Shown: positions 1,175 to 54,854 of the stretch, in pieces
Layout of the letters: each line of letters begins with the position of its first letter
Position numbering within the stretch: position 1 is the stretch's first letter
Origin: Candidatus Bathyarchaeota archaeon
GTDB taxonomy: Archaea; Thermoproteota; Bathyarchaeia; Bathyarchaeales; Bathyarchaeaceae
Length of the DNA: 64,000 bases
Reading direction: 5' to 3'
NCBI GenBank assembly: GCA_004376295.1
Contig: SOJZ01000005.1
Coordinates: 33,914-97,913, forward strand
Notes under the pieces: model-generated
Database searches by the model: none
Told to the model about the DNA's origin: nothing
The model's input: only the letters and a program-made list of their open reading frames with translations
Made by a program: the position numbers and the translations under genes

Positions 1175-2113
1175 ATGCTGATGCATGATGATTTCTTTAC
1201 ACTACCAGACGGCAATACAAAACCTTTTTTCCAGATGGGAAACCTTAGCAAGCGATTCATTATCCAACATCCATATTTTCCTTTTGGCTCGTTGACTAAC
1301 CCATTTTTGCACATGAATGAAGAAGATTTCGAAGATGAGACGCCAGTGTATTTCCAGCAATTCGAACTCTCAACAGATGAGAATTCGTTTGATTTCAATG
1401 ATTTCCTACTCGATATTGAGAGAAACTGGCATTTGAGACCAGATGAAGCTCTTTGGTATGAAACCGGATTCTGGTCGATTATCTACAGAGCGAAATGCTA
1501 CATGGGCATGGGTGTAGAAAGGTTAAAAGAAACTCTAAACGCACTGGAAAACGCGAAATTTGCCCTCTGTCTTTGCAATTACGAATCCATTTTACTGATA
1601 AACTCTAAGATGAGTGAAGAAAACAAGATTCTACTCAGTATTTACGCTTCAAATGATGTTCTTCCTTTTGTGGAAGTAGTCGAGCCATTTCGACTCGCAG
1701 CTAGAAATTGCAAAAACGTTAGTAGTATGAAGGATAGGTTGTTATCAGAAGAAAAATTACGTAGGTTTTGGTTTGCTAATCGTAAAATCAACATTAATCC
1801 CATAGCGTTTGTTATGAGTAAAGACGACCCCCGCTACAAAATGCTACCAGTTATTGGAAATGAGTTCACACGAACAAAAGACCCTGAGATAAGCAAGATT
1901 CAATTTTTGACAGGGACTACCGGCGGAGGGTTTATCGAATCTGACTATTATGGTGGAAGACAATTTTACCCACATGCCGAAGTGTGGAACTTAGGATCTA
2001 TATCAATAGTAGAGTTTCACTTTGAGATGGATATAGCCAGTGATTTTAGAACGAATGACATTCCAAAAGAAACTGCTCAATTGAATTTACTTGCTCTGAA
2101 TCCAGTTTCCTAA
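1175..2113 (+). CDS. hypothetical protein
   Basis: 312-aa ORF divergent from the nuclease-fold gene (42-nt spacer). No motif recognised. Confidence 0.5.
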   Translation: MLMHDDFFTLPDGNTKPFFQMGNLSKRFIIQHPYFPFGSLTNPFLHMNEEDFEDETPVYFQQFELSTDENSFDFNDFLLDIERNWHLRPDEALWYETGFWSIIYRAKCYMGMGVERLKETLNALENAKFALCLCNYESILLINSKMSEENKILLSIYASNDVLPFVEVVEPFRLAARNCKNVSSMKDRLLSEEKLRRFWFANRKININPIAFVMSKDDPRYKMLPVIGNEFTRTKDPEISKIQFLTGTTGGGFIESDYYGGRQFYPHAEVWNLGSISIVEFHFEMDIASDFRTNDIPKETAQLNLLALNPVS

Positions 2114-5594: not shown

Positions 5595-5695
5595 TGTTAA
5601 ATCCTCCTTTCAGAAGTACAGAAGAAATGCCATATAAGTATATATTCTCTTGGATTTGCGCACGCGATATTTCCTTAGAATTTCGCTTAAGCTTG

Positions 5696-5705
5696 TGCAT
5701 GCATG
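5696..5705. repeat. TGCATGCA-type palindrome
   Basis: tgcatgcatg, in the divergent hbd / DUF885 intergenic region. Confidence 0.8.
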
Positions 5706-5924
5706 AAGGATAAAGAACAGAAATACACGCATTTTGGAGGTTATGACCAAGAGTTTTATGTTATGTCAATGTTACTAACCTCTAAAACTAATGATGCGTG
5801 CACCTACAAAAATAGTGTATATCATCATCCATGCATACAGAAAACCTGAAAGCCCGCAAGTAATGCAAAAAAGTAATAACAGAGCCATGAGACTGTAGTA
5901 GATTCCAAATGAACTACAACAAAA

Positions 5925-7571
5925 ATGGTGAAAAAAATGAATGGAGACGAAGCATTTGAAAAGCATACTCAAGAGGCTTTGCAACAGTTTTTAGAAAGGA
6001 ACCCTGAAGATGCTACGTTTCTAGGTTTCCATGAGCCTTACGACAAGTTGCTTTCGAACGGTAACATAGAAGAAGTATATGAAAACCTGAAACTGACGGA
6101 AGACTGGCGTACCAAGATGAAGCAAACGATAAACTTTGATGAACTCAACGAAGAACACAAAATGGATTGGAGACTACTCGAAAACACTTGCAAAAGGTTC
6201 AAATTCTCTGCATATGAACACCGTATCCACGAGAAAAATCCTGAATGCCTACAAGGCATTGGCGCCCTGATTTTTGTGGTCTTGACCAGGGAATATGCAC
6301 CTTTTGAGAAGAGAATTGAAGGCATCGTTTCTCGACTAGAAAAACTACCACTATACCTTGAACAGTTTCGAAAAAGCTATGAAAAATGTGTGCCGGTGAA
6401 GTTATGGACGGAAGTTGCTATTGAAGGATGCCAACGAATGCCTAAATTCTTCCAATTCCTCATCGCCGTGGCAAAGGGAAGAATCTCAGAAAAGCTCTTT
6501 CTAAGACTCCAAGCGGCAGTGGCAAGCCTGTCCCAACCACTGAATGAACACCTTGAATGGCTAAAGGCACTGTTACCAAAGGCAAAGGCTGACTGGGTGC
6601 TTGGAAAGGAAAAATTCGATAGACTCTTGAAACTCAGAGAACTCGGAATGAGTGCTGATGAAATCCACGAATTAGGAGTGAAATTTCTCAAGGAGCTGAA
6701 AGAAGAAAGAGCTAGACTAGCTGGGAAGATTTCTCCTGGAAAAACCGTTGAAGAAGTAATGAAAGAAATTCAAGCTGACGCTCCTAAAACCTATGAAGAA
6801 GCATTAGAATTTACACGAAAAGAAATGGAACGAGCAAAAAACTTTGTACGTGAGCACGATATTGCAACAATTCCGAAGCAAGGCAAGCTTCACGTTGAAG
6901 AGACACCTTCATTCATCGCTCCCTTAATCCCCTTTGCAGCGTTGGTTCCGCCAAGCAAATATGAAAAGACCCAAGAGGGAATCTACATCGTAACCCGCCC
7001 AAAAGACATGAAAGACATGAGCAAAGATGCAAATTACGCAAGCATACCAAACATTGCAGTACACGAAGCCTACCCAGGACATTTCCTACAAACCTCACGA
7101 TCAAACCGTCTCGGCTCTTTCATTCGAATTCTTGCTTCTGGATCAGAAACTGTAGAGGGCTGGGCACATTATTGCGAAGAAATGATGATGGAACACGGCT
7201 TTCAAGGAGGCTTGAAATCTAGGTTCATGCAGGTAAATGGCATGAAATGGCGTGCTGTAAGAATAATAGTTGATGTGAAACTTTCCTGTGGAGAAATGAG
7301 CTTCGACGGAGCAGTTAATATGCTAGTGAAGGAAACAGGGATGTCAAAGAACGGCGCAGTCGCCGAGGTTCGCAGATATACAATGAGACCTGGATATCCG
7401 CTTTCATATCTTCTCGGCAAACATTTAATGTTGAAGCTACGAGACGACGTGAAAGCCAAAATGAGCGATAAATACAGCGACAGATTCTTCCATGATGTCG
7501 TAACAGCCAACGGATATTTCCCAATGTCAAAGCTTAGAGAAATCTTCGAACAGAAACTTGGAAAAATATGA
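5925..7571 (+). CDS. DUF885 family protein (putative metallopeptidase-like)
   Basis: 548 aa. The HEAYPGHFLQ motif and length are typical of DUF885. Confidence 0.7.
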   Translation: MVKKMNGDEAFEKHTQEALQQFLERNPEDATFLGFHEPYDKLLSNGNIEEVYENLKLTEDWRTKMKQTINFDELNEEHKMDWRLLENTCKRFKFSAYEHRIHEKNPECLQGIGALIFVVLTREYAPFEKRIEGIVSRLEKLPLYLEQFRKSYEKCVPVKLWTEVAIEGCQRMPKFFQFLIAVAKGRISEKLFLRLQAAVASLSQPLNEHLEWLKALLPKAKADWVLGKEKFDRLLKLRELGMSADEIHELGVKFLKELKEERARLAGKISPGKTVEEVMKEIQADAPKTYEEALEFTRKEMERAKNFVREHDIATIPKQGKLHVEETPSFIAPLIPFAALVPPSKYEKTQEGIYIVTRPKDMKDMSKDANYASIPNIAVHEAYPGHFLQTSRSNRLGSFIRILASGSETVEGWAHYCEEMMMEHGFQGGLKSRFMQVNGMKWRAVRIIVDVKLSCGEMSFDGAVNMLVKETGMSKNGAVAEVRRYTMRPGYPLSYLLGKHLMLKLRDDVKAKMSDKYSDRFFHDVVTANGYFPMSKLREIFEQKLGKI

Positions 7572-7572
7572 T

Positions 7573-7586
7573 TGCATGAATGCATG
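7573..7586. repeat. TGCATG-aa-TGCATG variant
   Basis: tgcatgaatgcatg, starting 2 nt after the DUF885 stop codon. Confidence 0.7.
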
Positions 7587-7663
7587 GATTTAGAATAATG
7601 TTGTTTTTTAGTGGTTCAAAGTTTTAAGACTATGTTACCTGAATGTAGCAACCACTAAAATCA

Positions 7664-7675
7664 ATGCATGCATGC
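7664..7675. repeat. TGCATGCA-type palindrome
   Basis: tgcatgcatgca, in the convergent DUF885 / ACAD intergenic region. Confidence 0.8.
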
Positions 7676-7710
7676 AAGGCAGGAAAACCAGCTTTTACAT
7701 GCCTCAAATT

Positions 7711-8889
7711 CTAGTAGGATTTCGGCAAGCCCAAAACATGCTCACCGATAAAAGCCAAAACCATCTGATGGGTCACAGGCGCAAGTCTAATCAGATTCAC
7801 CTCTCTCCACCAACGCTCTACATCATACTCCACAGCATAACCATAACCACCAAAAGTCTGCATAGCATGATAAACAGCCTCAGTACCAGCCTCAACAGCA
7901 GCAACCTTAGCCATGTTAGCCTCGGCACCGCACCGTTGCCCCTTATCATAAAGCCAAGCAGCCCGGTAATTCAACAACCTAGCAGCTTCAATTTTCGCCT
8001 TAGCCTTGGCAAGTGGAAACTGAATAGCCTGATGAGAACCAATAGGCACACCAAAAACCCTCCTCTCCCTAGCATACTCAACAGCCTTCCGGATAGCTAA
8101 AAGCCCAATACCGCACGCAGCCGCAGAAAAAGACATCCTCTCAGGATTCAAAGTATCCAAAACAAGATACCAGCCCTTATCCCTCTCGCCCAACAGGTTC
8201 TCCTCAGGAACCCTAAGATCATCAATGTGAACCTCATCAGTCTCAGAATAGTGGATTCCATGCTTTTCTATCGGAATAATCTCGACCGCAGGGTTGGGCA
8301 AATCCACAAGGAAGAGACTCAAACCCAAAGTCCTTTTCGGAGCCCTTTCCAAAGGAGTCGTCCTGGTTATGAGCACCATTCCCTTAGCCCTATCAGCACC
8401 AGAAATAAACATCTTCTGACCGTTGATAACATACTCGTCACCCTCTTTAACAGCCATAGTTCTCGTGTTCAAAGTGTTCGTCCCAGCGTCGGGCTCGGTT
8501 AAAGCCAAACAAAACTCCGTACCCTTAGCGATTTTCGGCAGGTACTTCTCCTTTTGACTCTCATTACCATGCTTCACTATGGTTAATCCTCCGAAAACTG
8601 AGGTTAAACATAGAAACCATTCTCCAGCCAATCCACAACCCTCAGAGGTCAAAGTTTCCATGGCCAAAATCATCTCAAACATTCCCATCCCACTCCCACC
8701 GTACTTTTCAGGAATAAATATACCCGGAAAACCAGCCTCAACCAAAGTCTTCCAGAAATCCTCAGGAAACTCATGCTTCTTGTCCTTCTCCCTCCAATAC
8801 TCCGGACCGAAATCTCGAGCAATATCAGAAGCCGCTTCAACAATCATTTTCTGTTCAACACTCAACTCAAAATTCAAAGCTTCTCCCAA
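7711..8889 (-). CDS. acyl-CoA dehydrogenase
   Basis: 392 aa. It has LTEPDAGTN, a QKMFISGA-type core and C-terminal FGGYGY..EYDVERWWRE. The coding strand is strongly G+T-rich. Confidence 0.9.
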   Translation of the reverse strand: MGEALNFELSVEQKMIVEAASDIARDFGPEYWREKDKKHEFPEDFWKTLVEAGFPGIFIPEKYGGSGMGMFEMILAMETLTSEGCGLAGEWFLCLTSVFGGLTIVKHGNESQKEKYLPKIAKGTEFCLALTEPDAGTNTLNTRTMAVKEGDEYVINGQKMFISGADRAKGMVLITRTTPLERAPKRTLGLSLFLVDLPNPAVEIIPIEKHGIHYSETDEVHIDDLRVPEENLLGERDKGWYLVLDTLNPERMSFSAAACGIGLLAIRKAVEYARERRVFGVPIGSHQAIQFPLAKAKAKIEAARLLNYRAAWLYDKGQRCGAEANMAKVAAVEAGTEAVYHAMQTFGGYGYAVEYDVERWWREVNLIRLAPVTHQMVLAFIGEHVLGLPKSY

Positions 8890-8950
8890 CCCGAGTTTTA
8901 TGGCAAAAGTATCTTTGAGCTTAGAATATAAAGTCTTTTACGAAGAATAA

Positions 8951-8961
8951 GCATGCATGCA
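8951..8961. repeat. TGCATGCA-type palindrome
   Basis: gcatgcatgca, in the divergent ACAD / acyl-CoA synthetase intergenic region. Confidence 0.8.
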
Positions 8962-9066
8962 ATGGTGGTGTGCGGGAGAAAACTCCACAAGCATTATTTT
9001 CTTTGGTCAGTAATATTTTAAAGTTCCAGCAGAACTCTTGATTAATGTTAGAAGGTGAGATGAGCC

Positions 9067-10626
9067 ATGGCTTGGTTGAACTTGGGAGAGATCTTAGACA
9101 TCCATGCTAAGAAGCATCCTATGAAATTAGCAGTCAAAGACTGGTGCGACAAGGTATGGACATATTCGGAACTAAACATTAGAACTAACAAACTGGCTAA
9201 TGGCCTATTAAACATGGGTCTGCACAAGGGTGACCGTGTCGCAGTCATGCTTTATAACTGCGCCGAGTTCGTCGAGATTTACTGCGCCTTTGCCAAAGCT
9301 GGGCTGGTGGTTACGCCAGTTAGCTGGCGTTACGTTGAAAGGGAAATAGAATACGTTGTTGATAACTCAGACGCAAAAGCCATGATCGTCTATGAGGAGT
9401 TTGTTAGTGCAATTAATCAGCTTCGTCCGACATTTGATAAAATCGACAGCAAGAACTACATAGTTGTTGGTGAAACAACCCCTCAGGGCTACACAAATTT
9501 TGAGGACTTGATTACAAACTCCCCCGACCATAAGCCCGATGTAAAAGTTGACGGCAAGGATACATGGGTTCAAATTTACACTTCTGGCACTACAGGTTTT
9601 CCCAAGGGCGTTGTTCGATCCCACGAATCTTATGCCGCGTTTTTCTTAATCAACGCTGTGGAATTCGGTTTTTCAGAGAAGGATTATGGAATGATTATCA
9701 TGCCTCTCTTCCATGTAAATTCAACCTTTTATGGACTTCTATTTCTCTATATCGGCGCCTCTCTATTCGTTGGCAGAGACAAAGGGTTCGATCCTGTTGA
9801 GTTACTGAGCATTGTAGACAGAGAGAAAATCACCTTTACCTCACTGATTCCAACCCACTACAGCCTCATTTTGGAAATTCCAGAAGAGAAACGTCAATGT
9901 TTCAACACAAGTTCGCTGCACAAGCTGTTATGCTCCTCTGCTCCTGCTAGAAGCAGGATAAAACGTGGAATCCTGGAATGTTTCCCCAGCGTTGAGCTAT
10001 ATGAGGGCTATGGCTCCACTGAAGCTGGGTTAGTCACCATACTCAAGCCTGAAGACCAGCTCAGAAAAATTGGATCAATGGGTAGAGAATGTCTGGGAGT
10101 AGATCTAGTCAAGCTTTTGGATGAGAATGGTCGCGAGGTTGGGATAGGAGAAATTGGCGAGCTCTATTCTAGGGGGCAAATGATGTTTGACGAGTATAAC
10201 AAGATGCCTGAGAAGACTAAGACCTCATTTAGAGGCGAATTCTTCAGTGCTGGCGACTTGGTCAAGCGTGATGAGGAAGGCTATTATTACATTGTTGACC
10301 GCAAGGACAATATGGTCATTACAGGCGGTGAACATGTCTATCCCTCAGAGGTTGAAGAGATAATCTCTCAGCATCCGAAAGTTCGTGACATTGCTGTGGT
10401 AGGTCTTCCAGATGATAGGTGGGGTGAGGCTGTCACGGCGGTCGTTGTTTTAAGGGACGGTGAAAACGCAACCAGCGAAGAAATCGTTGGATGGTGTAGG
10501 GGCAAGATGGCTGGGTATAAAAAGCCTAAGAGAGTGGTATTCATTGACTATTCTGAAATGCCTAGGGCTGCAACAGGGAAGATTTTACATAGAAAACTTA
10601 GGGAACGCTTCGCTGAACCCATTTGA
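9067..10626 (+). CDS. AMP-forming acyl-CoA synthetase (fatty-acid--CoA ligase family)
   Basis: 519 aa. Carries the AMP-binding motif IYTSGTTGFPKGV, then GYGSTE, and the C-terminal AGYKKPKRVVF..PRAATGKILHRKL. Confidence 0.9.
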   Translation: MAWLNLGEILDIHAKKHPMKLAVKDWCDKVWTYSELNIRTNKLANGLLNMGLHKGDRVAVMLYNCAEFVEIYCAFAKAGLVVTPVSWRYVEREIEYVVDNSDAKAMIVYEEFVSAINQLRPTFDKIDSKNYIVVGETTPQGYTNFEDLITNSPDHKPDVKVDGKDTWVQIYTSGTTGFPKGVVRSHESYAAFFLINAVEFGFSEKDYGMIIMPLFHVNSTFYGLLFLYIGASLFVGRDKGFDPVELLSIVDREKITFTSLIPTHYSLILEIPEEKRQCFNTSSLHKLLCSSAPARSRIKRGILECFPSVELYEGYGSTEAGLVTILKPEDQLRKIGSMGRECLGVDLVKLLDENGREVGIGEIGELYSRGQMMFDEYNKMPEKTKTSFRGEFFSAGDLVKRDEEGYYYIVDRKDNMVITGGEHVYPSEVEEIISQHPKVRDIAVVGLPDDRWGEAVTAVVVLRDGENATSEEIVGWCRGKMAGYKKPKRVVFIDYSEMPRAATGKILHRKLRERFAEPI

Positions 10627-10696
10627 TCTTTAATGTATTTTAAATGGTTACCGTTTTTAATGCATGTATGTAAATATAATGGTTGAAGCGGAGTTT

Positions 10697-10710
10697 TGCA
10701 TGCATGCATG
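10697..10710. repeat. TGCATGCA-type palindrome
   Basis: tgcatgcatgcatg, in the convergent acyl-CoA synthetase / arsM intergenic region. A degenerate tgcatgtatg lies at 10661-10670. Confidence 0.8.
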
Positions 10711-10763
10711 TTTGCAGGAGATATCTCAACTGTGTGAGAAGCAGGTTGAGGTGCATCAAGCTG

Positions 10764-11639
10764 TCATTTTAAGGGTTTTGTTGCTGAAACGTTGATGCTC
10801 GTGGTTGAGATTAGAGTCTCTTTTACTATCTCTTTTGATTCTTCGTCTAGTTCAGACACGCTTTTCAATTCTTGAGTATTTTTGTTGGAATTGGCAACGA
10901 TGACTCTTGCGTTAGGGTCATTGACAATGTCTTCGAAGGAATATTGCGTTTCTTTTATGATCTTTACATCTTGAAACCCCGCTTGTTCTATTGCCTCTAT
11001 GTATTTGTCTTTCATTATTGCCCCTTTGACGCAACTAGCTGGATGTGCTCTCTTCTTTATGGCTTCTGGTAGCTCCTTGAGCAAGACTATGTCTGAAACC
11101 ATTAATCTTCCTCCAGGTTTTAACGCTCTGAATGCTTCTTTGAAAGCTCTCTTCTTCTTTGGTGAAAGGTTGATTACACAGTTTGAGATGATCACATCAG
11201 CAGTGTTGTCTGCAACAGGGAGATTTTCGATCTCCCCGAGTCTGAACTCCACGTTCCCATAGTTGCCTTTTCTAGCGTTTTCTTGTGCCTTATCTATCAT
11301 TTCAGGTGTCATGTCCACACCGATGACTTTTCCTCTTTCTCCAACCTTTTTTGCTGCAAGGAAGCAGTCGACACCCGCACCTGATCCAAGATCAATGACC
11401 GTTTCGCCTTCTTCTAGGGATGCTAGTGCGACAGGATTTCCACATCCAAGACAAAGACTGGACCCTTCAGGAATAGATTTTAGCTCTTCTTCGGTGTAGC
11501 CCATTTTCGTGCTTAGTTCTTCGTACGTAGTAGGACTGCCACAGCATGAAGTTGTCGGGCTGCAACAAAGTCCCTCTTTGGCTATTTTGGCGTATCCTTC
11601 TCTCACATTTTTCCTTGTCTTCTCTTCTTCCAAAATCAA
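10764..11639 (-). CDS. arsM: arsenite S-adenosylmethionine methyltransferase-like protein
   Basis: 291 aa. SAM motif VIDLGSGAGVDCF plus ArsM-type cysteines: N-terminal CCSPTTSCCGSP, then CLGCGNP, SNCVINL and ASCVKGA. Confidence 0.8.
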   Translation of the reverse strand: MILEEEKTRKNVREGYAKIAKEGLCCSPTTSCCGSPTTYEELSTKMGYTEEELKSIPEGSSLCLGCGNPVALASLEEGETVIDLGSGAGVDCFLAAKKVGERGKVIGVDMTPEMIDKAQENARKGNYGNVEFRLGEIENLPVADNTADVIISNCVINLSPKKKRAFKEAFRALKPGGRLMVSDIVLLKELPEAIKKRAHPASCVKGAIMKDKYIEAIEQAGFQDVKIIKETQYSFEDIVNDPNARVIVANSNKNTQELKSVSELDEESKEIVKETLISTTSINVSATKPLK

Positions 11640-11666
11640 TACCCCTTTCTTGTTTTCTTGTTGTCT

Positions 11667-12029
11667 CTATTCTTTGCCGAGTGCCCTTTTTGCTTGTCCC
11701 TTTAGTTCTCTGATCTTCTCCACTGTTGGCATTACCTTCCGAAATAGATCTTTGCGAGCTTGTATTCCCTCTTTGATAAAGAATGCTGCAGCTTCGGATC
11801 TACTCTTAAAAGCTTCAACCTCAACAAGAGCATCTATCTGTTTCAGGTCTTCGTCGTTCAGTCTTGTCATGACTACGTTACTTCTGCCCTGCATACATGC
11901 ACCTATTTTCATGAGAACCTTTTCTTTGATCTTTTCTACATCCTCACCTTCTGGGCAACACGCCATCACCACAACCTTTTCGCTTTCTCTATGCTTCATT
12001 TCTTTCTTCTTTCCTTTTTCTTCACCCAT
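11667..12029 (-). CDS. ribbon-helix-helix (CopG-like) regulator with a Cys-containing N-terminal extension
   Basis: 120 aa. The RHH core is VVMTRLNDEDLKQIDALVEVEAFKSRSEAAAFFIKEGI. The preceding ~50 aa contain a vicinal CC and a third Cys. It lies 27 nt upstream of arsM on the same strand. Confidence 0.65.
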   Translation of the reverse strand: MGEEKGKKKEMKHRESEKVVVMACCPEGEDVEKIKEKVLMKIGACMQGRSNVVMTRLNDEDLKQIDALVEVEAFKSRSEAAAFFIKEGIQARKDLFRKVMPTVEKIRELKGQAKRALGKE

Positions 12030-12141
12030 TCATCTCACCCATTTTTTAGAGACTTGTATTCTGTAATTTGTAATACCGATATAAGATATATAAACGTTTC
12101 GTTACAAGTTGCATGTATTTGGTCGCTCTGATCCTTAATGG

Positions 12142-13355: not shown

Positions 13356-14474
13356 TTAGGGGACTCCTTTTATTGTTTCTATGAAGGCTTCAATTCTTGT
13401 TTTTATGGGGGCTATTCCGCTTCTGGTGTGTTCCCATTCGAGGTTTAGGACTGGTATGCCTTGGTTTTTCAGTTCTTCTGTTAGGAGAGGGGCGTCGAAC
13501 ATGTGGGTGTCGCAGAATTTCAGGAGGAAGTTGATGACGGCTTCGACGTTGTATTGTTTAATCATGTTTTTGATGTGGTTGAATCTTTCTTGATGATGGT
13601 ATCTGGAGGGGGATGGGATTTTGTTTAGGTAGCGTTTGGAGATGGCTTTTATGGGGTCTTTGTCTGTACGGACGAGGTTCCAGAAGTATCTTGTTCCCGT
13701 GCATAGGTCGTCTGCTACTGCGATTCCACCAACGGTTTCGATTATGTTTAGTAGGTCTGTGATGTCCATCATGCTTCCTGTGATTAGGAGTCTTACGCCG
13801 GGTTTTGGTGGGTCTGAACGGTTTTCTATTTCTTTCAGCAGTTGTTTCAGCAGTTTGTTGTGCTCTTTCTTGGGTGTTAGCATACTTGATAGGACGATTT
13901 CTAGGGCTTCTGCTCCGCTAATGAGGGGTGGGTCCTTTCTCCTTAGGTCATAGACTTTTTTGAGGAGGTTTCTGTTTTCATTGTAGAGTTGGATTGTGCG
14001 TTGGATTGTTTTGTTGGTTATGGTGGTTTTGAAAGTTTCTTCTAGGGATTTTTTGAATCTTATGATTTCTTGGTGGAAGAATTCATGAGCCTTTGGAGTG
14101 TTTGTGTGGGGGGTGTTTATGAAGTGGAAGTAGGGGATTTTTGCGTGGTATCTCCAGAGGTCGTAGGTTTTGGTGAAGTTATCGCAGGAGTTGGAGGTGA
14201 CAAGACCGTCTAGATAGGCGTAGTCGCTTCTCAAGGCTAGGTCAAAGGTGCTACGGGCGAAGGAACAGGCGTTGCGAGGTAGGAAGGCGTCCGCCAAGGT
14301 GGTGGGTTTCATGCTTCCTACGATTCTGACTGGTAAGGCACCTATGGCGTTGATGATTTCTTCTGGTGTGTAGGTGCTGTTCCAGCCTATGACGGGTTTG
14401 TTTTGGCTTTTCCAGTTCCCTGCGATGCTGTGTCTTTTGGAGAGCATGTTTCTGAAAGACTGTAAAATCTGCAT
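13356..14474 (-). CDS. 2-hydroxyacyl-CoA dehydratase family subunit (HgdA/BcrC-like)
   Basis: 372 aa with PVIGWNSTYTPEEIINAIGALPVRI, SNSCDNF and CTGTRYF. There is a 2-nt gap to the partner subunit. Confidence 0.8.
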   Translation of the reverse strand: MQILQSFRNMLSKRHSIAGNWKSQNKPVIGWNSTYTPEEIINAIGALPVRIVGSMKPTTLADAFLPRNACSFARSTFDLALRSDYAYLDGLVTSNSCDNFTKTYDLWRYHAKIPYFHFINTPHTNTPKAHEFFHQEIIRFKKSLEETFKTTITNKTIQRTIQLYNENRNLLKKVYDLRRKDPPLISGAEALEIVLSSMLTPKKEHNKLLKQLLKEIENRSDPPKPGVRLLITGSMMDITDLLNIIETVGGIAVADDLCTGTRYFWNLVRTDKDPIKAISKRYLNKIPSPSRYHHQERFNHIKNMIKQYNVEAVINFLLKFCDTHMFDAPLLTEELKNQGIPVLNLEWEHTRSGIAPIKTRIEAFIETIKGVP

Positions 14475-17561: not shown

Positions 17562-17669
17562 GTGTGATTTGTTAATTTCAGATGTGTTTTCTCGAGTCTT
17601 TCACCTTTTTGGCTTTCCCACGAATCTCGGTAGGGGTCCATAGGGGCAAGCTTGATATATGCTTTTATT

Positions 17670-17712
17670 CCGATTGGCTTCACATACGCGAATTTTATCT
17701 GAAGCCCATTGG
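17670..17712. other. imperfect 13-bp inverted repeat (possible RNA hairpin)
   Basis: CCGATTGGCTTCA (17670-17682) pairs with TGAAGCCCATTGG (17700-17712): 11 Watson-Crick pairs, 1 G-T and 1 mismatch, with a 17-nt loop. It lies between the scpB stop and the acs start. Confidence 0.25.
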
Positions 17713-17754
17713 AGTAGGCCTCTCGCACACGCACGCAAAAATAATCTGAACGTT

Positions 17755-18339
17755 CTATTTCTTCTCAGGCTCGGTTTTCTCGAAATCCTCAAACACTCTC
17801 TTAAGCTGTCGCTTCATAGTCCGCAAATCATGACTCAAACCAAAATAGTCAGCAAAAAACCCAGTCGTCCGTAACAATCTAGTCCGACCAACCCTCTCAC
17901 GAGAAATCAAACCCATACTCTCCAACTGCCTCAAATGACCATAAGCATGATGACCCCGCACATCAACAACCTGAGGCTGCAAAACAGGCTGTCGATAAGC
18001 AATGTAAGATAACGTCTTCAACGGGCCCTTAGAAAGAAGCGGCCGAATCGCCAACCTCTGAACCTGAGGTGAATATTCAGCCTTTAACTGCAAAACAAAC
18101 CGTTTATCCTCAAGCTCCAAGATTTCAAGGGCGGTTTCACGATTCTTATACTCTTCCATAAGAATGCTTACCAGCCTCTGAACCTTCCTCTTAGAACGAG
18201 TCTTAATGATAGATCCTAACGTCCTGAGATCCAGAGGACGCCCCGCCACATAGAGAGCAGCCTCTAATAAAGCTGAATCACGTTTCAACTTCTCTTCGCT
18301 AAGTAGCTCAGATGATTTCCGCTCTATCTCCTCCAACAA
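17755..18339 (-). CDS. scpB: segregation and condensation protein B (KITE subunit)
   Basis: 194 aa with tandem winged-helix signatures (LEAALYVAGRPL..., LSYIAYRQPV...). It is the last gene of the smc-scpA-scpB string. Confidence 0.85.
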   Translation of the reverse strand: MLEEIERKSSELLSEEKLKRDSALLEAALYVAGRPLDLRTLGSIIKTRSKRKVQRLVSILMEEYKNRETALEILELEDKRFVLQLKAEYSPQVQRLAIRPLLSKGPLKTLSYIAYRQPVLQPQVVDVRGHHAYGHLRQLESMGLISRERVGRTRLLRTTGFFADYFGLSHDLRTMKRQLKRVFEDFEKTEPEKK

Positions 18340-19006
18340 CAGGACCCTCTGGGACAGTTATGAAAATTTCGCTAGAATCTTCCTCCTGCCATAAGGCGAC
18401 TTTACCTGTTTGCGCAAGGAAGAGAAGAGTAATGAACGTTTTGATTGCTTCCAATTTTTCTAGTCCAGCTATCACCTTAGAAAAGAATGCGAGTTTTCCT
18501 CCACTTACAAGTTGTCGCAGAAGACGATACAAGCTCTTCATCTTCTCCTCAATCTCCATCATGTACAAATCGACTGGAGGAAGAAAATCCGGAGGAGGCG
18601 GCAAGATAGGTTCCGAACGTGGTTTCAATCCGAATAAGCGTTCACCCGTTAGCACTTCATCCAGCACCGTTAACAAATGCTGAATCGTAGTAGATGTCAA
18701 TTCGTAACGAAGAGGGAGAAACAAAGGAGGAGGCGAAAAATCTGGTGGAGGCTTGGGAGGAAGCGGAGGCTCCTCTAGCTTCAGCAGAAGCTTAGACTTC
18801 ATAAGATATATAGTGGCAGAAGAATCAAGCGCCACCCCTGAAGCCCTAAAATCGACCTCCCCTCTTTTTTCCATCTCATTCAAGAAGGATGTCAATAGAA
18901 ACGAAATGCTGATGTTCCATGGCAATATCTTCTGCAATTTATCAAGTTCGAAGAGTACGTTCAAAGGAGGTTGAAAATAGAATGGTTTTTCAATGGACGA
19001 CGACAT
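18308..19006 (-). CDS. scpA: segregation and condensation protein A (kleisin)
   Basis: 232 aa with a proline-rich central linker and a C-terminal winged helix (AIKTFITLLFLAQTGKVALWQEE). It overlaps the smc stop and the scpB start. Confidence 0.8.
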   Translation of the reverse strand: MSSSIEKPFYFQPPLNVLFELDKLQKILPWNISISFLLTSFLNEMEKRGEVDFRASGVALDSSATIYLMKSKLLLKLEEPPLPPKPPPDFSPPPLFLPLRYELTSTTIQHLLTVLDEVLTGERLFGLKPRSEPILPPPPDFLPPVDLYMMEIEEKMKSLYRLLRQLVSGGKLAFFSKVIAGLEKLEAIKTFITLLFLAQTGKVALWQEEDSSEIFITVPEGPVVGGDRAEII

Positions 19007-40637: not shown

Positions 40638-40925
40638 TCACTTAAAATACAGAGCTTTTATTTCTCGGTCAATGTACGTGCAGGATACATTTTCCTGTCT
40701 TGCAATGCTACGAAAATCGCTAAACCAATGCACCTCAAGCACATCATCCACATGAAACTCGGTCAAGGGGCATTCCCCAATAATATAGCCCTCGTCTTCA
40801 AGCCTTTGAACATATCCCTGAAGTTTTTTCTCCGTCCATTGTCCGTATGTCTAATATGCGAGTCCTCCGACTATCAAGATGAGGCAGACGAGAAAGGAAA
40901 AGGCGACAATTGCACGCTTATCCAT
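40638..40925 (-). pseudogene. small N-terminally anchored protein gene interrupted by one in-frame TAG
   Basis: Minus-strand reading gives MDKRAIVAFSFLVCLILIVGGLAY*TYGQWTEKKLQGYVQRLEDEGYIIGECPLTEFHVDDVLEVHWFSDFRSIARQENVSCTYIDREIKALYFK*. The TAG is at 40851-40853. The listed plus-strand ORF 40572..40955 is its shadow. Confidence 0.4.
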
Positions 40926-40932
40926 GCATACA

Positions 40933-40975
40933 ACTGTAACTTCTTCATTCTATGATCTAACATAGTTAGTAAAGA
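40933..40975. repeat. ACTGTAAYTTCTTCATTCTATRATCTANCATAGTTRG repeat, copy 1
   Basis: actgtaacttcttcattctatgatctaacatagttag. Homologous flank continues to ~41025 (compare 53702-53760). It lies 3' of the membrane-protein gene 41025..41420. Confidence 0.7.
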
Positions 40976-41024
40976 ACGAATAGTTGAGTATTCAGTGTTT
41001 ACTTCATCTTGCTGATTTTCGTAT

Positions 41025-44062: not shown

Positions 44063-44087
44063 GTTGTTTGTGTTTTTCACGTTTTTT

Positions 44088-44118
44088 GCGTGTGTCTCTC
44101 TTTAGATCCCCCTCTAAA
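44088..44118 (-). repeat. TATAGGGGG...AGAGAGACAC intergenic repeat, copy 3 (inverted, degenerate)
   Basis: The plus strand reads gcgtgtgtctctctttagatccccctctaaa. Its reverse complement is TTTAGAGGGGGATCTAAAGAGAGACACACGC. It starts 26 nt after the SPOUT gene stop. Confidence 0.7.
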
Positions 44119-44136
44119 TTTTTTTCACGGTTTCTT

Positions 44137-44178
44137 GTTCTCTCTCTTTTATAGACCCCCCTATAGCCCCCCTATACC
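44137..44178 (-). repeat. TATAGGGGG...AGAGAGACAC intergenic repeat, copy 4 (inverted)
   Basis: The plus strand reads gttctctctcttttatagacccccctatagcccccctatacc. Its reverse complement is GGTATAGGGGGGCTATAGGGGGGTCTATAAAAGAGAGAGAAC. Confidence 0.8.
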
Positions 44179-44392
44179 AAGGGCCATTCTGTGGAAAGCC
44201 CGTGATCACGGTTTTGAGCTTCTTTGCTTCTTCAATGGGCTTTCTCTACCCAATATAGTATCAAAGGTAAGAGGGTCATATGTTTTCAGACTGCGTGAAC
44301 GAGTTGATGTGCGCAAGCATTGTGAAGGGGAAAGACTCTGATGTATGGCGATATAAGAAAGCTTATATGCAAGATCACCCAATAATATATTG

Positions 44393-44416
44393 AATATGTC
44401 TTATTATAGACATATT
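44393..44416. promoter_or_regulatory. perfect 9-bp inverted repeat with 6-nt spacer (candidate operator)
   Basis: AATATGTCT-tattat-AGACATATT, in an AT-rich intergenic region about 60-80 nt upstream of the small ORF at 44478/44499. Confidence 0.35.
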
Positions 44417-44477
44417 GTCTATACGTATAACGTGAGAACTGTAGAACAAAAATACATAAAACGGAAAAGGAAGAAAC

Positions 44478-44642
44478 TTGCCGAGGAAAATAGCCATAAT
44501 GGTGATAAACCTCGTTAAAGAGAGTGTGGAAAAGCTAAACAAGGAAATTGAAGAGGAGATTCTCAAGGAAATTAAAGAGCTGAGAATTCCTTGGATGGAG
44601 AAGGTGGAGAAGGTCACGGTTTTAGAATCAGACGAGGATTAG
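44478..44642 (+). CDS. possible small coiled-coil protein
   Basis: 54 codons from the TTG (47 from the ATG at 44499): ...VINLVKESVEKLNKEIEEEILKEIKELRIPWMEKVEKVTVLESDED. The listed minus-strand ORF 44375..44617 is a low-complexity shadow. Too short for the ORF track. Confidence 0.25.
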   Translation: MPRKIAIMVINLVKESVEKLNKEIEEEILKEIKELRIPWMEKVEKVTVLESDED

Positions 44643-44760
44643 AAGTACTTTCATCTCGTCAGGACATGCGATATCGTGTTACGTTTACTTTCAGTGTTTT
44701 CTCCAACCCTCGTGATTTCTTTCACCATAAAGGATATCGAAGAGTCTACAAAAGACGGGG

Positions 44761-44985
44761 TTAAGTGATGTATCTGACTTCCTGAAATTCTCTGGAGACT
44801 GGAGTTTTCACTTCTCCCTTGATGGGCATCCCCTCTTCGCCCTCACAATCTTCCTCGTCCACATACATGTCCTCAACAATTTTCTGGATGATGCTCGTCA
44901 TCTCATTAATCCTATTTCTTAACACATTCAACTTTTGCTCTAATGTCAAATTTTCCCATTCTTCCTCGTCAACCTTATTCGCCAT
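44761..44985 (-). CDS. small acidic hypothetical protein
   Basis: 74-aa ORF that is helical and acidic. No motif recognised. Confidence 0.4.
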   Translation of the reverse strand: MANKVDEEEWENLTLEQKLNVLRNRINEMTSIIQKIVEDMYVDEEDCEGEEGMPIKGEVKTPVSREFQEVRYIT

Positions 44986-45146
44986 TCTTCAACACCTCAA
45001 GGAAATAGATAACGTGAATTAATAATTGCAGTAGAAAAGGATTTCGATGAAATGACCCCATTGCTGCTATAATCCTCTAAAGAGATTGGGCTCTTAGATT
45101 TATGGAGCAGACTTTTCTGAAAGCTACCGATTTTAACGTTGAGTAG

Positions 45147-45293
45147 TTATCCTTTAAAGTTCTTTAACGCTTCGTATAGCTTCTGTATAGTCATTTCCAA
45201 GACCGCTTTCAAAAGACGCAAAAGGTCTTTGATGTTCACCGGTCGGAAACCAGCTCCAAATCCACACATCACATAATTTGTAGATTCACTCAT
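45147..45293 (-). CDS. possible small hypothetical protein
   Basis: 48 codons: MSESTNYVMCGFGAGFRPVNIKDLLRLLKAVLEMTIQKLYEALKNFKG. Below the ORF-track cutoff. Confidence 0.25.
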   Translation of the reverse strand: MSESTNYVMCGFGAGFRPVNIKDLLRLLKAVLEMTIQKLYEALKNFKG

Positions 45294-45559
45294 TGTCCAT
45301 CACCAATGTATTCTGAAATAGATAGGTTATCTCGTATATTACGATACACGATTATTTAAACCATTTTGCAGCAAACCTGTAAAACTTCGAAAACAGAACA
45401 CACAAAGCCGAAACTCTCTACTGAATTCACACGCATCCCAATGCGTAATTTTTGTAACCACGGAAATTAGAGGTTTCACCATCAGCCTCAAACTGGAGGT
45501 TTTTCTGCTCTGAGAAGTTTAAATAAAATGTAGGTGCGCATTATACAGCGGTGATCTAG

Positions 45560-46179
45560 ATGTTTGAGCTTGGAGATATACGATTCAAACCTGTAGAAAA
45601 GGATGATTTGAAGCTTTTGCACAAATGGGAGAACGATTTTGAGCTTATGATGTATTCCAGGAGTAAACCTTGAATTTTGTAAGCATGGAGCAGATTGAAA
45701 GGCAGTATGATGAGCGGATGAAGCAGGATAACGACATTCGTTTCATCGTTGAACTAATCGGTACGAATGAGCCTACAGGATTAGCGGTTATACGGGGACA
45801 GAAGTGGGGCAACGTGAAGGGTGCAGATTTGGGCACTTGTATTGGAAAGAAGGATTTGTGAAGTAAAGGCTATGGAAAACAGATCACGGTTGCTTTGCTT
45901 GAAATGTGTTTCATCTTCCTAAACATGGAACGCTGCCAAGCTTGGAGCATAGAATAAAACACTCGCGCCCGCAAAACACTTGAAGCATGCGGGTTCAAAA
46001 AAGGGGGAGCAGTGAGAAACACTTCTCTCGTCAATGGCGAAAAATGGAACTCCCTTCGCTTTGACATACTTCGTGAAGAATACCTGAACATTCAAGAAAA
46101 TCTGCTTAGGAAAACACTAGGAGAAAAATTAGACGAATACCTCAAAAAGCACTGTGGCTTAGCTAAAAACTTCGAATAA
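45560..46179 (+). pseudogene. GNAT-family (RimJ/RimL-like) N-acetyltransferase pseudogene
   Basis: Three collinear pieces read MFELGDIRFKPVEKDDLKLLHKWENDFELMMYSRSKP*, then after a 1-nt frame change NFVSMEQIERQYDE...IGKKDL*, then SKGYGKQITVALLEMCFIFLNMERCQAWSIE*NTRARKTLEACGFKKGGAVRN...ILREEY. There is a frameshift at ~45670, an in-frame TGA at 45859 (where the family has WGKGYG) and an in-frame TAA at 45954. Confidence 0.7.
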
Positions 46180-46272
46180 ATTATCTGAGAAAGTAACGTT
46201 TATAACTCAACGCTCTTATTGAAACAAAGACGAAACAAAAGATAAGGATAACAAAAAGAAGGATACTAACGT

Positions 46273-50068: not shown

Positions 50069-50338
50069 TCACTTACTCGCTTCGCTGCGTTTATATCGTG
50101 TGAAGCCGCAGTGTCCGCAGGTGTAACGGTCGCCGTGGTCTGCCATGAAGTATCCTGATCCGCATCTTTCGCAGAAGGGAAGAAGTCTTTCAAGTTTATT
50201 TTCCCCGATCTTATAGTAGGAAAAGACGCCCTTTCTTTTCTTCTTAGCCTTTTCAACTTTCTTTTCTTCGGGTTTTTTTTCTGGTTTTACTTCGGGTTCC
50301 TTGGGTTCTTCTGCTTCTTCTGTTTCTTTCTCAGCCAT
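50069..50338 (-). CDS. rps27ae: 30S ribosomal protein S27ae with a K/E-rich N-terminal extension
   Basis: Has the C-terminal zinc ribbon CERCGSGYFMADHGDRYTCGHCG. The N-terminal ~35 aa are K/E/P-rich. Confidence 0.85.
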   Translation of the reverse strand: MAEKETEEAEEPKEPEVKPEKKPEEKKVEKAKKKRKGVFSYYKIGENKLERLLPFCERCGSGYFMADHGDRYTCGHCGFTRYKRSEASK

Positions 50339-52101: not shown

Positions 52102-52334
52102 AACTACTCCTCGCTACTGACTTTTTTAACAGCTAGGTGTTCTGCATTATTTTTATCTCTAAGGGTTAAATAGTAGGGTTTTAGGGAATAGAGTAAAGCT
52201 TCTGTAGGAGAACAGAAAGAAAGAATAATTTCTTCCAACTTTGCCCTATCCCTTTTTAGATGTTAATATAGGTTTGATAAAGCTTATGCGTGTAGGGAGA
52301 CTTTAATACTTTTTTGTGTCAGATGCCAGTCACT

Positions 52335-52832
52335 CTATTGTTTCTCGATTAGCTCTGCTATGTATTTTAAGGAGAAGGGTTTTGCAATAAAGTCGTTTAG
52401 ACTGATGAGAAATGTTTCATGTTCTTGTATGTCATCTCCACCTTCTGAGATTATGTTTGTGATGAACTTGGAATAGTCTGTGTAGTTTTTGTGTAATGAA
52501 ATAATCATTCCATTCTTTCCTTCGCCTTGACATCTAGCTGAAAATATGATATTTGGGTTTGCCATTGCCACTTTTCTTGCTTTATCAGCTAGTTCCTTCG
52601 TTACTCGTGATCTGAAGCAGTTGATTGCCAGGATTTCAAATCCCATTTTTGGTAAGTCAGGTATTACGGTGAACTCTTTTATCACTCCTTCCTTTACAAG
52701 CCTACTTCTTGTTCTGGTTACAGTTGGCTGTGACACTCCAACAAGGTCTGCTAGTTTCCTATCACTCTTCTTGGAATTCTTTAGCAATTCCACAAGAACC
52801 TTTTTCATTATCTTTTTCATCAGCATCACCAC
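52335..52832 (-). CDS. Lrp/AsnC-family transcriptional regulator
   Basis: 165 aa with the HTH SDRKLADLVGVSQPTVTRTRSRLVKEGVI, followed by a RAM-like domain. Confidence 0.8.
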   Translation of the reverse strand: MVMLMKKIMKKVLVELLKNSKKSDRKLADLVGVSQPTVTRTRSRLVKEGVIKEFTVIPDLPKMGFEILAINCFRSRVTKELADKARKVAMANPNIIFSARCQGEGKNGMIISLHKNYTDYSKFITNIISEGGDDIQEHETFLISLNDFIAKPFSLKYIAELIEKQ

Positions 52833-52837
52833 TCAAC

Positions 52838-52846
52838 TGCATGCAT
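52838..52846. repeat. TGCATGCA-type palindrome
   Basis: tgcatgcat, 6 nt upstream of the Lrp-family gene start. Confidence 0.75.
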
Positions 52847-52966
52847 TTGTATCACTTGCAAATTAATTTTGTGGTCTTGACACAGTTTGCTGATGAGAGA
52901 ATCCTAAGAATGCTCTATATGCACCATTAAATAGAGCAAAGCTATATCTATCTATTAGGTATAAAA

Positions 52967-53212
52967 ATGAGTCAGAAAGTTAGAGATTGGCTCAGGCAAT
53001 TGAGATTACTTGATCAAACAACTCACGAAGACAGAGTTGAAATAGATTCGGAGATAGAAAGGCAGACTGGTGTTCATTGTGATTATGCCATAGAGAAGAA
53101 GATGATTACTGAAAGAGAGTTCAGACGAGTTGTCGAACGAGTGCTTGCACAGAAAAAGATGGCAATGAAGAAGACTTTGGACAAGTTGGTTGAACAAAAG
53201 GCTGTGGTGTAA
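52967..53212 (+). CDS. hypothetical protein
   Basis: 81-aa helical ORF in the AT-richer patch. Confidence 0.4.
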   Translation: MSQKVRDWLRQLRLLDQTTHEDRVEIDSEIERQTGVHCDYAIEKKMITEREFRRVVERVLAQKKMAMKKTLDKLVEQKAVV

Positions 53213-53434: not shown

Positions 53435-53450
53435 GACAGAGAGTATTCAA

Positions 53451-53462
53451 TGCATGCATGCA
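53451..53462. repeat. TGCATGCA-type palindrome
   Basis: tgcatgcatgca, 17 nt after the stop of the truncated P-loop ORF. Confidence 0.8.
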
Positions 53463-53501
53463 ATTACCGATAACATCACTATTCCTAGCTTAACATTTAG
53501 T

Positions 53502-53509
53502 TGCATGCA
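53502..53509. repeat. TGCATGCA-type palindrome
   Basis: tgcatgca followed by an A-run. Confidence 0.75.
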
Positions 53510-54849: not shown

Positions 54850-54854
54850 CAGAA

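Follow-up and report, generated by a model that had tools for sequence, protein, structure and literature searches.

Repeats that lie between genes as short palindromes, or that mark the ends of mobile cassettes, are already known from several systems. Integrons have been reported in Archaea, and the bacterial repetitive extragenic palindromic (REP) elements, together with bacterial interspersed mosaic elements (BIMEs) and REPINs, are mobilised by RAYT transposases, which are IS200/IS605-like Y1 enzymes. Here we describe an iterated palindrome, (TGCA)n, built on the octamer TGCATGCA, in 64 kb of DNA (hereafter the window) from a Candidatus Bathyarchaeota archaeon (contig SOJZ01000005.1, positions 33,914 to 97,913). 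Among the uncultured archaea of sediments, Bathyarchaeia belong to the most abundant, and gene gain and loss is the usual explanation for their metabolic versatility. The palindrome has the appearance of a boundary sequence for movable gene modules of a kind not described before. In the literature found, (TGCA)n in archaea is undescribed: full-text searches returned no published archaeal account of TGCATGCA or of iterated palindromes of this sort.

Counting overlaps, TGCATGCA has ten exact matches in the window, which merge into seven loci (5696, 7665/7669, 8954, 10697/10701, 52838, 53451/53455 and 53502). This is the number given in the original prediction, a note made from the sequence alone, which had also placed three copies at 52.8–53.5 kb and had put the chance expectation at about one. 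Based on 100 dinucleotide-preserving shuffles of the window, the expectation is 0.88 ± 1.10 matches; the largest count in any shuffle was 5, and none of the 100 reached 10. With one mismatch allowed, the window holds 43 matches against 23.7 expected. The predicted run starts at 7664 and 8951 hold when the full period-4 run is counted, the exact octamers beginning at 7665 and 8954, and the split variant at 7573 and the degenerate copy near 10661 are both present. Further degenerate copies lie at 5795, 5828, 11890 and 12110. All seven loci are outside long open reading frames (ORFs), as had been claimed, and the octamer is not equally frequent inside genes; ORFs of at least 100 amino acids (aa) make up 83% of the window and the remainder 17%, the gene calls being mostly longest-ORF calls made in this analysis.

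Across 49 sites in archaeal-like loci, the motif is a period-4 TGCA run of 8–16 nt, mostly 11–13 nt, that starts and ends in arbitrary phase. The copies have nothing else in common: flank composition is flat at each position to 20 nt, and there is no run of T at a fixed distance. We found no family of direct or inverted repeats longer than ~15 nt that contains the motif, and the unaccounted junction segments do not recur elsewhere. Alternating purine–pyrimidine (R/Y) runs of at least 12 nt number 11 in the window against 4.7 expected, and the excess consists almost entirely of (TGCA)n. Thus, the signal in the window is sequence-specific rather than one of generic R/Y alternation, and generic Z-DNA or R/Y tracts were rejected as the enriched class.

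Our analysis covers ~78 kb of this genome. A Joint Genome Institute (JGI) contig from the same population (L001, 99.9% identical) extends the sequence 4 kb leftward and adds two intergenic copies, and another contig extends it 9.8 kb rightward and adds none. The nine copies in these 77.9 kb fall into three clusters, and the stretch from 12 to 52 kb, which encodes SMC-ScpAB, Pcc1, ribosomal proteins and RpoE, has no copy. Using syntenic Bathyarchaeia contigs whose acyl-CoA synthetase (ACS) orthologues are 87–91% identical at the aa level, we defined a conserved backbone with the order PyrRedox, zfChsH2-thiolase-ECH-hbd, ACS, HGD-D, and with eIF2gamma-PIN followed by RpoE. In L138 the order is ECH-hbd(−), ACS(+), HGD-D HGD-D(−), with hbd and ACS as direct neighbours across a 119-nt spacer. 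In L139/L140 and L141/L142 it is PyrRedox(+), zfChsH2-thiolase-ECH-hbd(−), LysE(+), ACS(+), HGD-D HGD-D ApbA(−), with DZR and DUF3795 between ACS and HGD-D in L141 only. The stop codons of ACS and HGD-D are 13 nt apart in L138 and L139, and PyrRedox and zfChsH2 are convergent neighbours 129 nt apart in L141.

Relative to the syntenic contigs L138, L139, L141 and L143, four insertions are evident: (i) an Mrr-like gene and an ORF between PyrRedox and zfChsH2; (ii) DUF885 and an acyl-CoA dehydrogenase gene (ACAD) between hbd and ACS; (iii) a 120-aa ORF and an arsM-like gene between ACS and HGD-D; and (iv) a low-GC island between PIN and RpoE. Blocks of homology with L139 and L141 break or resume at window positions −343, 2251, 5697, 8967, 10620 and 12137. 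The island, which holds the second motif cluster, provided an independent test of the insertion model by comparison with CP070754.1, in which eIF2gamma, PIN, RpoE, Spt4, DUF359 and S24e are contiguous and the PIN/RpoE spacer is 53 nt long. The four insertions (11.7 kb) contain or border every one of the nine copies, at ~0.7 per kb, and there are no copies in the other 66 kb. When intergenic bases alone are compared (3.7 kb accessory, 9.1 kb other), this confinement has P ~1e-5, and the conserved backbone spacers are empty. The intergenic enrichment on which the original prediction depended is borne out in these 77.9 kb.

Gene content between the sites varies among relatives, a point that the original prediction had proposed to check. 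The hbd/ACS slot is empty in L138, holds LysE in L139 and L141, and holds DUF885 and ACAD in the window; DUF885 is missing from this slot in L138, L139 and L141 and has other neighbourhoods in relatives. The ACS/HGD-D slot is empty in L138 and L139, holds DZR and DUF3795 in L141, and holds the ORF and the arsM-like gene in the window. Where the flanking genes directly adjoin in relatives, both spacers lack the motif. The prediction that every gene boundary of the acyl-CoA block is punctuated by a palindrome therefore holds within the window, but only because the DUF885, ACAD and arsM-like units were each inserted separately, and it does not extend to the conserved beta-oxidation backbone, whose spacers are without the motif. 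The whole hbd/ACS variable slot is also bracketed by a 16-bp direct repeat, TATTTTCTTGGATTAG (~5641–5658 and ~8994–9009 in the window; ~6480–6500 and ~7525–7545 in L139), of which L138, with no insert, has a single copy. This pair could have arisen from a target duplication long ago; otherwise it is a bidirectional promoter that has been duplicated.

Several copies of the motif lie within 0–8 nt of synteny breakpoints; more broadly, copies are often located at an insertion joint or no more than ~20 bases from one, the others standing between inserted genes. Insert ii (5698–8966) opens with the copy at 5696–5705 and closes with the copy at 8951–8961. At its left joint the window reads AAGCTTGTG/CATGCATGAAGG and L139 reads AAGCTTGTG/TACTTTCAG, with backbone homology running to 5697; at its right joint the window reads GCATGCATGCAATGGT/GGTGTGC and L139 reads CAGAAAAAAG/GGTGTGC. 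Orthologues of ACAD (89–91% aa and ~86% nt identity) are present in four other contigs, following LysRS in L011, L014 and L015 and in a different neighbourhood in L012. DNA homology with all four extends from 7685/7710 to 8945/8953 in window coordinates, a stretch composed of the gene, ~25 nt of 3′ flank and a conserved promoter with TFB recognition element (BRE) and TATA box, and it stops at the motif copies 7664–7676 and 8951–8961 (at 7685 in the case of L015). Since ACAD homology ends at 8945–8953 and the backbone of L139 starts at 8967, the unmatched joint is 8954–8966; this joint between ACAD and the backbone, TGCATGCAATGGT, consists of 13 bases, eight of which are motif. At the site upstream of ACAD the relatives read AGCATAGACTTTTTGCGTT, which is conserved even in L012 despite its different upstream neighbour, and creation of the motif in place from this sequence would take ~7 substitutions in 11 nt. 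The orthologues with the same promoter thus lack the motif at these positions. For DUF885, homology with L005 stops at 7573, the very base at which the split copy begins. In insert iii, copies lie 12 nt and 18 nt inside the two ends, and the latter, degenerate in the window at 12110, matches TGCATGCA exactly at the corresponding position of strain L137 (97% identical).

Beyond this population, the octamer occurs at chance density (0.024 per kb) in the closest relatives by ACAD or ACS, and the sole copy in L141 lies between the two genes of its own that are inserted in the same slot. A second Bathyarchaeia metagenome-assembled genome (MAG), CAYGAE01, has four intergenic copies in 9.8 kb, one of them immediately next to the TATA box of a DUF885 paralogue. 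Scanning the JGI metagenomes with AATGCATGCATGCAA gave at least 120 loci, and about one-third of the matches listed hold further copies. This sample is selected for carrying the 15-mer, and the statistics come from non-seed copies in prokaryote-like contigs among the matches listed. These copies are intergenic in 35 cases and coding in 9, in sequence with 78% coding bases, an enrichment of ~14-fold; they occupy 34% of convergent, 19% of tandem and 14% of divergent spacers, and 14 of 39 distances to a stop codon are ≤55 nt. The presence of copies in divergent and convergent spacers alike, reported earlier for the window, is found there as well as claimed, both spacer types carrying the motif. 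Nearly every spacer has the motif in the prokaryote-like contigs L135 (six copies in 3.3 kb), L076, L016, L134, L112 and L075. Among the products of these contigs are accessory or defence-type proteins (OLD-family nuclease, SDH protease, Band 7, SHOCT), and many of their ORFs match no family; one protein of L075 is 54% identical to a protein of a Bathyarchaeia contig that comes from the sample of L075 itself. An all-against-all comparison identified no protein family that recurs in the motif-rich contigs. The 35 matches in IMG/VR have 0.02 extra copies per kb, and this chance-level density rules out a viral or proviral motif.

Dense arrays or conserved copies are also present in L078, L023, L039, L110 and L029/L067, which are eukaryote-like contigs with low coding density, satellites and poly-A/T tracts. 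They are unrelated to the archaeal element and would contaminate motif-based searches; we left such contigs out (L078, L023, L029/L067 and others), and the apparently conserved site in L029/L067 is irrelevant here.

The reading that we favour, with confidence that stops a little short of even, is that (TGCA)n serves as the terminal or joining sequence of mobile modules, each a single transcription unit, in a sub-lineage of Bathyarchaeia. Each module would have a BRE/TATA promoter of its own, one or two genes and a 3′ end. At a few intergenic slots, in a chromosome that is conserved elsewhere, modules would be inserted or replaced, and probably also inverted. Novel joints would be made at the palindrome or within a few bases of it, and what stands between adjacent modules would therefore be either one copy or a doublet that encloses a short remnant. 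Such a process implies that recombination or joining takes place at the motif, presumably by a trans-acting, sequence-specific enzyme, and that doublets may be what is left of lost or empty modules. The core, being its own reverse complement, has no orientation, which fits the alternating orientation of genes in the block: hbd(−), DUF885(+), ACAD(−), ACS(+), arsM-like(−).

We prefer this reading because of the confinement of the motif to inserted DNA, its base-level coincidence with breakpoints and its absence from the same genes elsewhere, and also because of the gene remnant beside the copy at 53450 and the orientation-free arrangement of modules. The remnant is a 73-aa ORF (53213–53434) that retains only the Walker-A start of a NACHT/AAA_16-type NTPase. 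Among the possibilities raised in the original prediction, a cassette boundary or recombination site is thus the one best matched by the data, given that copies occur only in lineage-specific DNA and several sit at synteny breakpoints. A more specific proposal would make (TGCA)n the recombination site for a new gene-cassette system in Bathyarchaeia, in which a trans-acting, sequence-specific enzyme other than an integron integrase would cut DNA and join it at the orientation-free 8-bp palindrome, moving promoter-bearing single-gene modules into, out of and between a few slots in either orientation and relocating native metabolic genes such as ACAD and DUF885 as well. We regard this proposal as unlikely, yet as having a real chance of being correct.

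Several observations weigh against a joining function: (i) No integrase, transposase or other candidate enzyme was found in the ~78 kb of genome. (ii) Run lengths are not multiples of 4 and the end phase is arbitrary, which does not fit a simple model of staggered cutting and fill-in or of target duplication. (iii) We found no presence/absence polymorphism with a single-copy empty site, and the empty slots in L138 and L139 have no motif. (iv) The outer edges of the island lack a copy, its three copies lying between internal modules; insert i has two copies near its left edge, 55 nt and ~260 nt from it, and none at its right edge. (v) The coincidence with breakpoints is partly built in, since homology never extends through lineage-specific sequence. 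(vi) The preference for convergent spacers and for positions ≤55 nt from stop codons is not predicted by a purely recombinational role. Because the island and insert i have edges without a copy, the motif is not required for every insertion; it is a property of accessory DNA and of many joints, not all.

The last of these points is better explained by the principal alternative, namely that a dimeric, sequence-specific protein encoded by the host or by an island binds TGCATGCA and insulates, terminates or silences acquired transcription units. The site would travel with acquired DNA or be selected in it, and recombination would be incidental. An 8-bp palindrome would suit a dimer, and the copies are placed between transcription units, also soon after stop codons, with convergent spacers the most occupied. 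This reading also accounts better for positions that resemble those of archaeal repressor sites: the copy at the helix-turn-helix (HTH) gene of the island lies between a TATA-like box and the gene start, and a copy in L008 abuts the TATA box of DUF885. The ACAD motif is 13 nt upstream of the BRE and the hbd motif ~50 nt upstream of the TATA box; the distance to promoter elements is, however, not fixed. Between strains with 97% identity, three of five sites show no change. In addition, other alternating tracts are enriched in the spacers of motif-poor Bathyarchaeia relatives (L003–L005, L011–L015, L138–L141 and L136), where R/Y runs of at least 11 nt number 18 against 5.8 expected, ~3-fold, whereas in coding sequence of the same relatives they are barely enriched (42 against 31.6). 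These tracts include GTGCATGCGCG and CGTGCGCGCGT; many of them are near-variants of the motif, such as GTGCATGCGCG and GCGTGCATACGCATA, and the excess may reflect a related, broader phenomenon. On the other side, no binding protein was found, and the Lrp-type regulator of the island has no relatives in the other motif-bearing loci that we fetched. Many sites of 8–14 nt would have to arise de novo at fresh joints within ~10% divergence, and the ACAD/backbone joint, made of little beyond the motif, would be left unexplained. Judged on the sequence evidence, a protein-bound boundary is possible, if on the unlikely side. This reading and that of a joining sequence are not mutually exclusive.

A terminator reading fares less well. 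Single copies do not fold (z = +1.4 and +1.7), although pairing between two copies is possible. The doublet at 7572–7678, which also contains an inner 11-bp inverted repeat (TTTTAGTGGTT/AACCACTAAAA), folds as DNA with −19.6 kcal/mol (z = −3.25, equalled by 1 of 200 shuffles), and the pairs 10660/10697 and 53450/53502 have no significant fold. The bidirectional terminator suggested in the original prediction is disfavoured by this single significant hairpin, by the unfolded single copies and by the occupancy of only 2–3 of ~11 convergent spacers in the window; an intrinsic terminator was rejected on the same hairpin count and the absence of a T-run at a fixed distance. Folding likewise gives no support to a cruciform or hairpin formed by single copies, which had been proposed for the 12-nt palindrome. 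The motif is missing from most spacers, even from most of the convergent ones, and a general promoter or terminator element was rejected on that account.

An improbable alternative is a selfish or mutation-driven short palindrome of the REP/REPIN or HIP type, spread by a dedicated transposase or by biased repair linked to methylation and having no role in the movement of gene modules. Such an element would account for the intergenic location, for the bias toward 3′ ends and convergent spacers and for the one doublet that folds as a REPIN-like hairpin, and the cyanobacterial HIP1, GCGATCGC, is also an 8-bp palindrome. However, the motif is confined to inserted DNA, with none in 9 kb of backbone spacers, and no RAYT or IS200-type gene was found in the ~78 kb. 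At 8–16 nt, with neither the stem-loop of a REP nor conserved flanks, the run is too short, and the REP-like element of the original prediction is improbable on these grounds and on the restriction to accessory DNA. HIP1 is abundant inside genes and (TGCA)n is not. One-mismatch variants are not depleted, and the degenerate copies have no clear deamination spectrum; a methyl-deamination signature was rejected, the substitutions in these copies not being distinctive. A miniature inverted-repeat transposable element or insertion sequence was also rejected, as no repeat family longer than ~15 nt carries the motif and the modules are ordinary genes with orthologues elsewhere.

It is very improbable that the motif is an operator for a regulator of acyl-CoA or fatty-acid metabolism such as the HTH protein at 52335–52832. 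Four consecutive spacers of the acyl-CoA block and the promoter of that HTH gene have a copy, but copies also lie in convergent spacers, where there is no promoter, and beside unrelated genes (Mrr-like nuclease, methyltransferase and island ORFs here; OLD nuclease, SHOCT and Band 7 in other contigs), the distance to the TATA box varies, and the conserved hbd, ACS and ACAD promoters of relatives are without the motif. The original prediction had already argued against a simple operator, and the distribution largely refutes one. Chance, or an assembly or library artefact such as chimeric joining at a linker-like palindrome, is scarcely credible, despite the metagenomic origin of the sequence and the location of the motif at synteny breaks, because no shuffle reaches the observed count, the joins are always between complete transcription units and never inside genes, and the same arrangement is found in the independent JGI contig (99.9%), in a Logan assembly of another run (97%) and in unrelated studies, the three independent assemblies agreeing with each other and differing by point changes inside sites.

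Table 1 Copies of the (TGCA)n motif, insertions and associated genes, in window coordinates unless stated otherwise.
Feature	Position	Strand	Remarks
Two exact motif copies left of the window	L001 3788 and 3992		Near the left edge of insert i
Insert i	From ~340 nt before the window to 2250		Mrr-like gene and ORF
Mrr-like nuclease gene	134–1132	−	Insert i
ORF without family match	1175–2113	+	Insert i
Motif copy TGCATGCATG	5696–5705		Left joint of insert ii, hbd promoter side against inserted DNA
Insert ii, DUF885 and ACAD	5698–8966		Variable slot between hbd and ACS
Degenerate copy TGCGTGCA	5795–5802		Within the unaccounted 198 nt upstream of DUF885
Degenerate copy TCCATGCATACA	5828–5839		57 nt upstream of the start of DUF885 homology (5896)
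DUF885 gene, inserted module	5925–7571	+	Pfam DUF885, E = 3e-91
Doublet hairpin	7572–7678		DNA fold; two motif copies and inner inverted repeat
Split/degenerate double copy TGCATGAATGCATGGA	7573–7588		Directly after the DUF885 stop codon
Motif copy ATGCATGCATGCA	7664–7676		3′ end of the ACAD module
Acyl-CoA dehydrogenase gene (ACAD), inserted module	7711–8889	−	Pfam
ACAD BRE/TATA promoter	TATA 8925–8932		Own promoter; conserved in all five genomes
Motif copy GCATGCATGCA	8951–8961		Joint of ACAD module and backbone ACS promoter
AMP-forming acyl-CoA synthetase gene (ACS), backbone	9067–10626	+	Pfam; syntenic in L137–L142
Insert iii	10621–12136		Hypothetical 120-aa ORF and arsM-like gene
Degenerate copy ATGCATGTATGTA	10660–10672		~12 nt inside the left end of insert iii
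Motif copy TGCATGCATGCATG	10697–10710		54 nt beyond the arsM-like stop; TGTATGCATGCATG in strain L137
arsM-like SAM methyltransferase gene	10764–11639	−	Pfam
Hypothetical 120-aa ORF	11667–12029	−	
Degenerate copy TGCATACATGCA	11890–11901		Inside the 120-aa ORF; possibly a chance match
Degenerate copy TGCATGTA	12110–12117		18 nt inside the right end of insert iii
Low-GC (36%) 4.4-kb island	52113–56480		4,368 nt, between PIN and RpoE
HTH gene, Lrp-type	52335–52832	−	
Motif copy TGCATGCAT	52838–52846		Divergent spacer, between TATA-like box and HTH gene start
Motif copy ATGCATGCATGCA	53450–53462		16 nt after the truncated P-loop ORF 53213–53434
Motif copy TGCATGCA, then A7	53502–53509		Second of doublet, 39 nt from the preceding copy

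The window is archaeal, since it encodes S24e, RpoE/Rpb7, DUF359, SMC-ScpAB and Pcc1, and its relatives carry the names Bathyarchaeia or Bathyarchaeota. Pfam searches assigned thiolase, ECH, hbd, DUF885, ACAD, acyl-CoA synthetase, arsM-like and two HGD-D genes, and the gene labels of the original prediction (hbd, DUF885, ACAD, acyl-CoA synthetase and arsM-like) are correct. A role of the 120-aa ORF as an ArsR-like regulator has no Pfam support. The Mrr-like gene of insert i encodes a PD-(D/E)XK nuclease, is without an adjacent methyltransferase gene and stands beside the two left-hand motif copies; its product as a candidate site-specific nuclease is speculative. Within the second HGD-D gene, which is intact in the window (13356–14474), L001 has only small plus-strand ORFs at 17579–18449 (window 13503–14373), probably owing to a frameshift or assembly error in one of the two sequences.

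The island encodes the Lrp-type HTH protein, small ORFs, the Walker-A gene fragment and a DrmC-like phospholipase D (PLD) nuclease. The last of these (54855–55730) begins with a membrane segment at the N terminus, continues as a long coiled coil and ends in a PLD nuclease domain at the C terminus, and its best matches in defence libraries are DrmC proteins of DISARM. A unit of ~40 nt, ACTAAAGATTTAAGAAAGAAACTTCTA, occurs three times (~54200–54240, 54808–54848 and 56055–56090), each time preceding an ORF on the plus strand by 25–45 nt (the PLD/DrmC-like gene in one case), and looks like a shared BRE/TATA promoter of island genes. A second repeat, TTCATTCTATAATCTANCATAGTTGGAAAAGAA, is found downstream of genes at 40943–40976, 53704–53737 and 55779–55812; the copy at 40.9 kb, outside the mapped insertions, abuts a degenerate motif TCCATGCATACA (40920–40931). 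Elsewhere, 2.2 kb of the otherwise densely coding sequence (44063–46272) contains neither an ORF that reaches 85 aa nor an Rfam match at the gathering threshold, and a tandem repeat, TTTTCTTCGGGT, is present three times at 50262–50298, in the 323-nt spacer beside the S24e gene.

Two Bathyarchaeota MAG chromosomes described as complete contain runs of 100 N, at 9901–10000 in L004 and just before 13610 in L143. The one of these that belongs to CP070754.1 stops right at CATGCATGCA, downstream of S24e, so that assemblies may be broken by short repeats of this type. Two further loci were set aside: the ACAD fragment beside a truncated DUF885 in bin695 (L004) abuts a 100-N gap and is not interpretable, and an indel near the motif in L035/L091 is an unrelated tandem duplication.

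In practical terms, the motif provides a simple, searchable mark for recently moved genes in one sub-lineage, and it can be used now to flag accessory DNA in MAGs. The marked genes are often bounded to the base, including inside a conserved cluster of translation and transcription genes. If the palindrome is a joining site, it would represent a cassette-like system that lacks an integron integrase and whose mobile units are whole transcription units; if a protein binds it as a boundary instead, it would offer a rare case, in archaea, of a defined site that insulates or silences acquired DNA.

Comparison with described elements helps to place (TGCA)n. Like the RY box of the Halobacterium bop promoter, an alternating purine–pyrimidine element that is sensitive to supercoiling, it is an archaeal intergenic R/Y tract that can lie near a promoter. 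The RY box is fixed in a single promoter, whereas (TGCA)n is variable in position, common at 3′ ends and, in the window, sequence-specific. TGCATGCA and CATGCATG are also promoter motifs in eukaryotes, as ApiAP2 sites in Apicomplexa and as the plant RY/Sph element bound by B3 factors, and both domain families descend from DNA-binding domains of prokaryotic nucleases. The identical sequence shows only that a dimeric or tandem DNA-binding domain can use such a palindrome as its target; the eukaryotic sites serve transcription factors, and no protein with an AP2 or B3/EcoRII-N domain was detected in the window. The likeness to HIP1 is that of an 8-bp palindrome present far beyond chance in one lineage. 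HIP1, however, is distributed genome-wide and is frequent in genes, whereas TGCATGCA is kept out of both genes and backbone spacers.

The resemblance to REP, BIME and REPIN elements is closer, in that (TGCA)n is an extragenic palindrome biased toward 3′ ends and convergent spacers and its doublets can form a long hairpin. REP sequences, however, are imperfect palindromes of 20–40 nt with a stem-loop of their own, whereas (TGCA)n is much shorter and perfectly periodic with a tetranucleotide repeat; it also lacks the conserved GTAG-type head of REP and is found only in accessory DNA of an archaeal host.

The functionally nearest analogue is the integron cassette array, from which (TGCA)n nevertheless differs in several respects. 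Integron attC sites are imperfect inverted repeats ~55–140 nt long with R″/L″/L′/R′ cores (RYYYAAC/GTTRRRY), compared with 8–16 nt for (TGCA)n, and even the 105-nt doublet hairpin terminates in TGCATG runs rather than GTTRRRY. Pfam, PADLOC and PHROGs scans in and around the inserts detected no IntI-type integrase, ~25 core-region ORFs not having been scanned individually, and no attI, which is required next to integron arrays, was found at the (TGCA)n loci. The (TGCA)n modules carry their own promoters, lie in both orientations and occupy several slots, whereas integron cassettes form one array. What the two systems appear to share is a repeated site at each boundary of individually mobile genes that accumulate at a chromosomal slot, and a gene content between those sites that varies among relatives.

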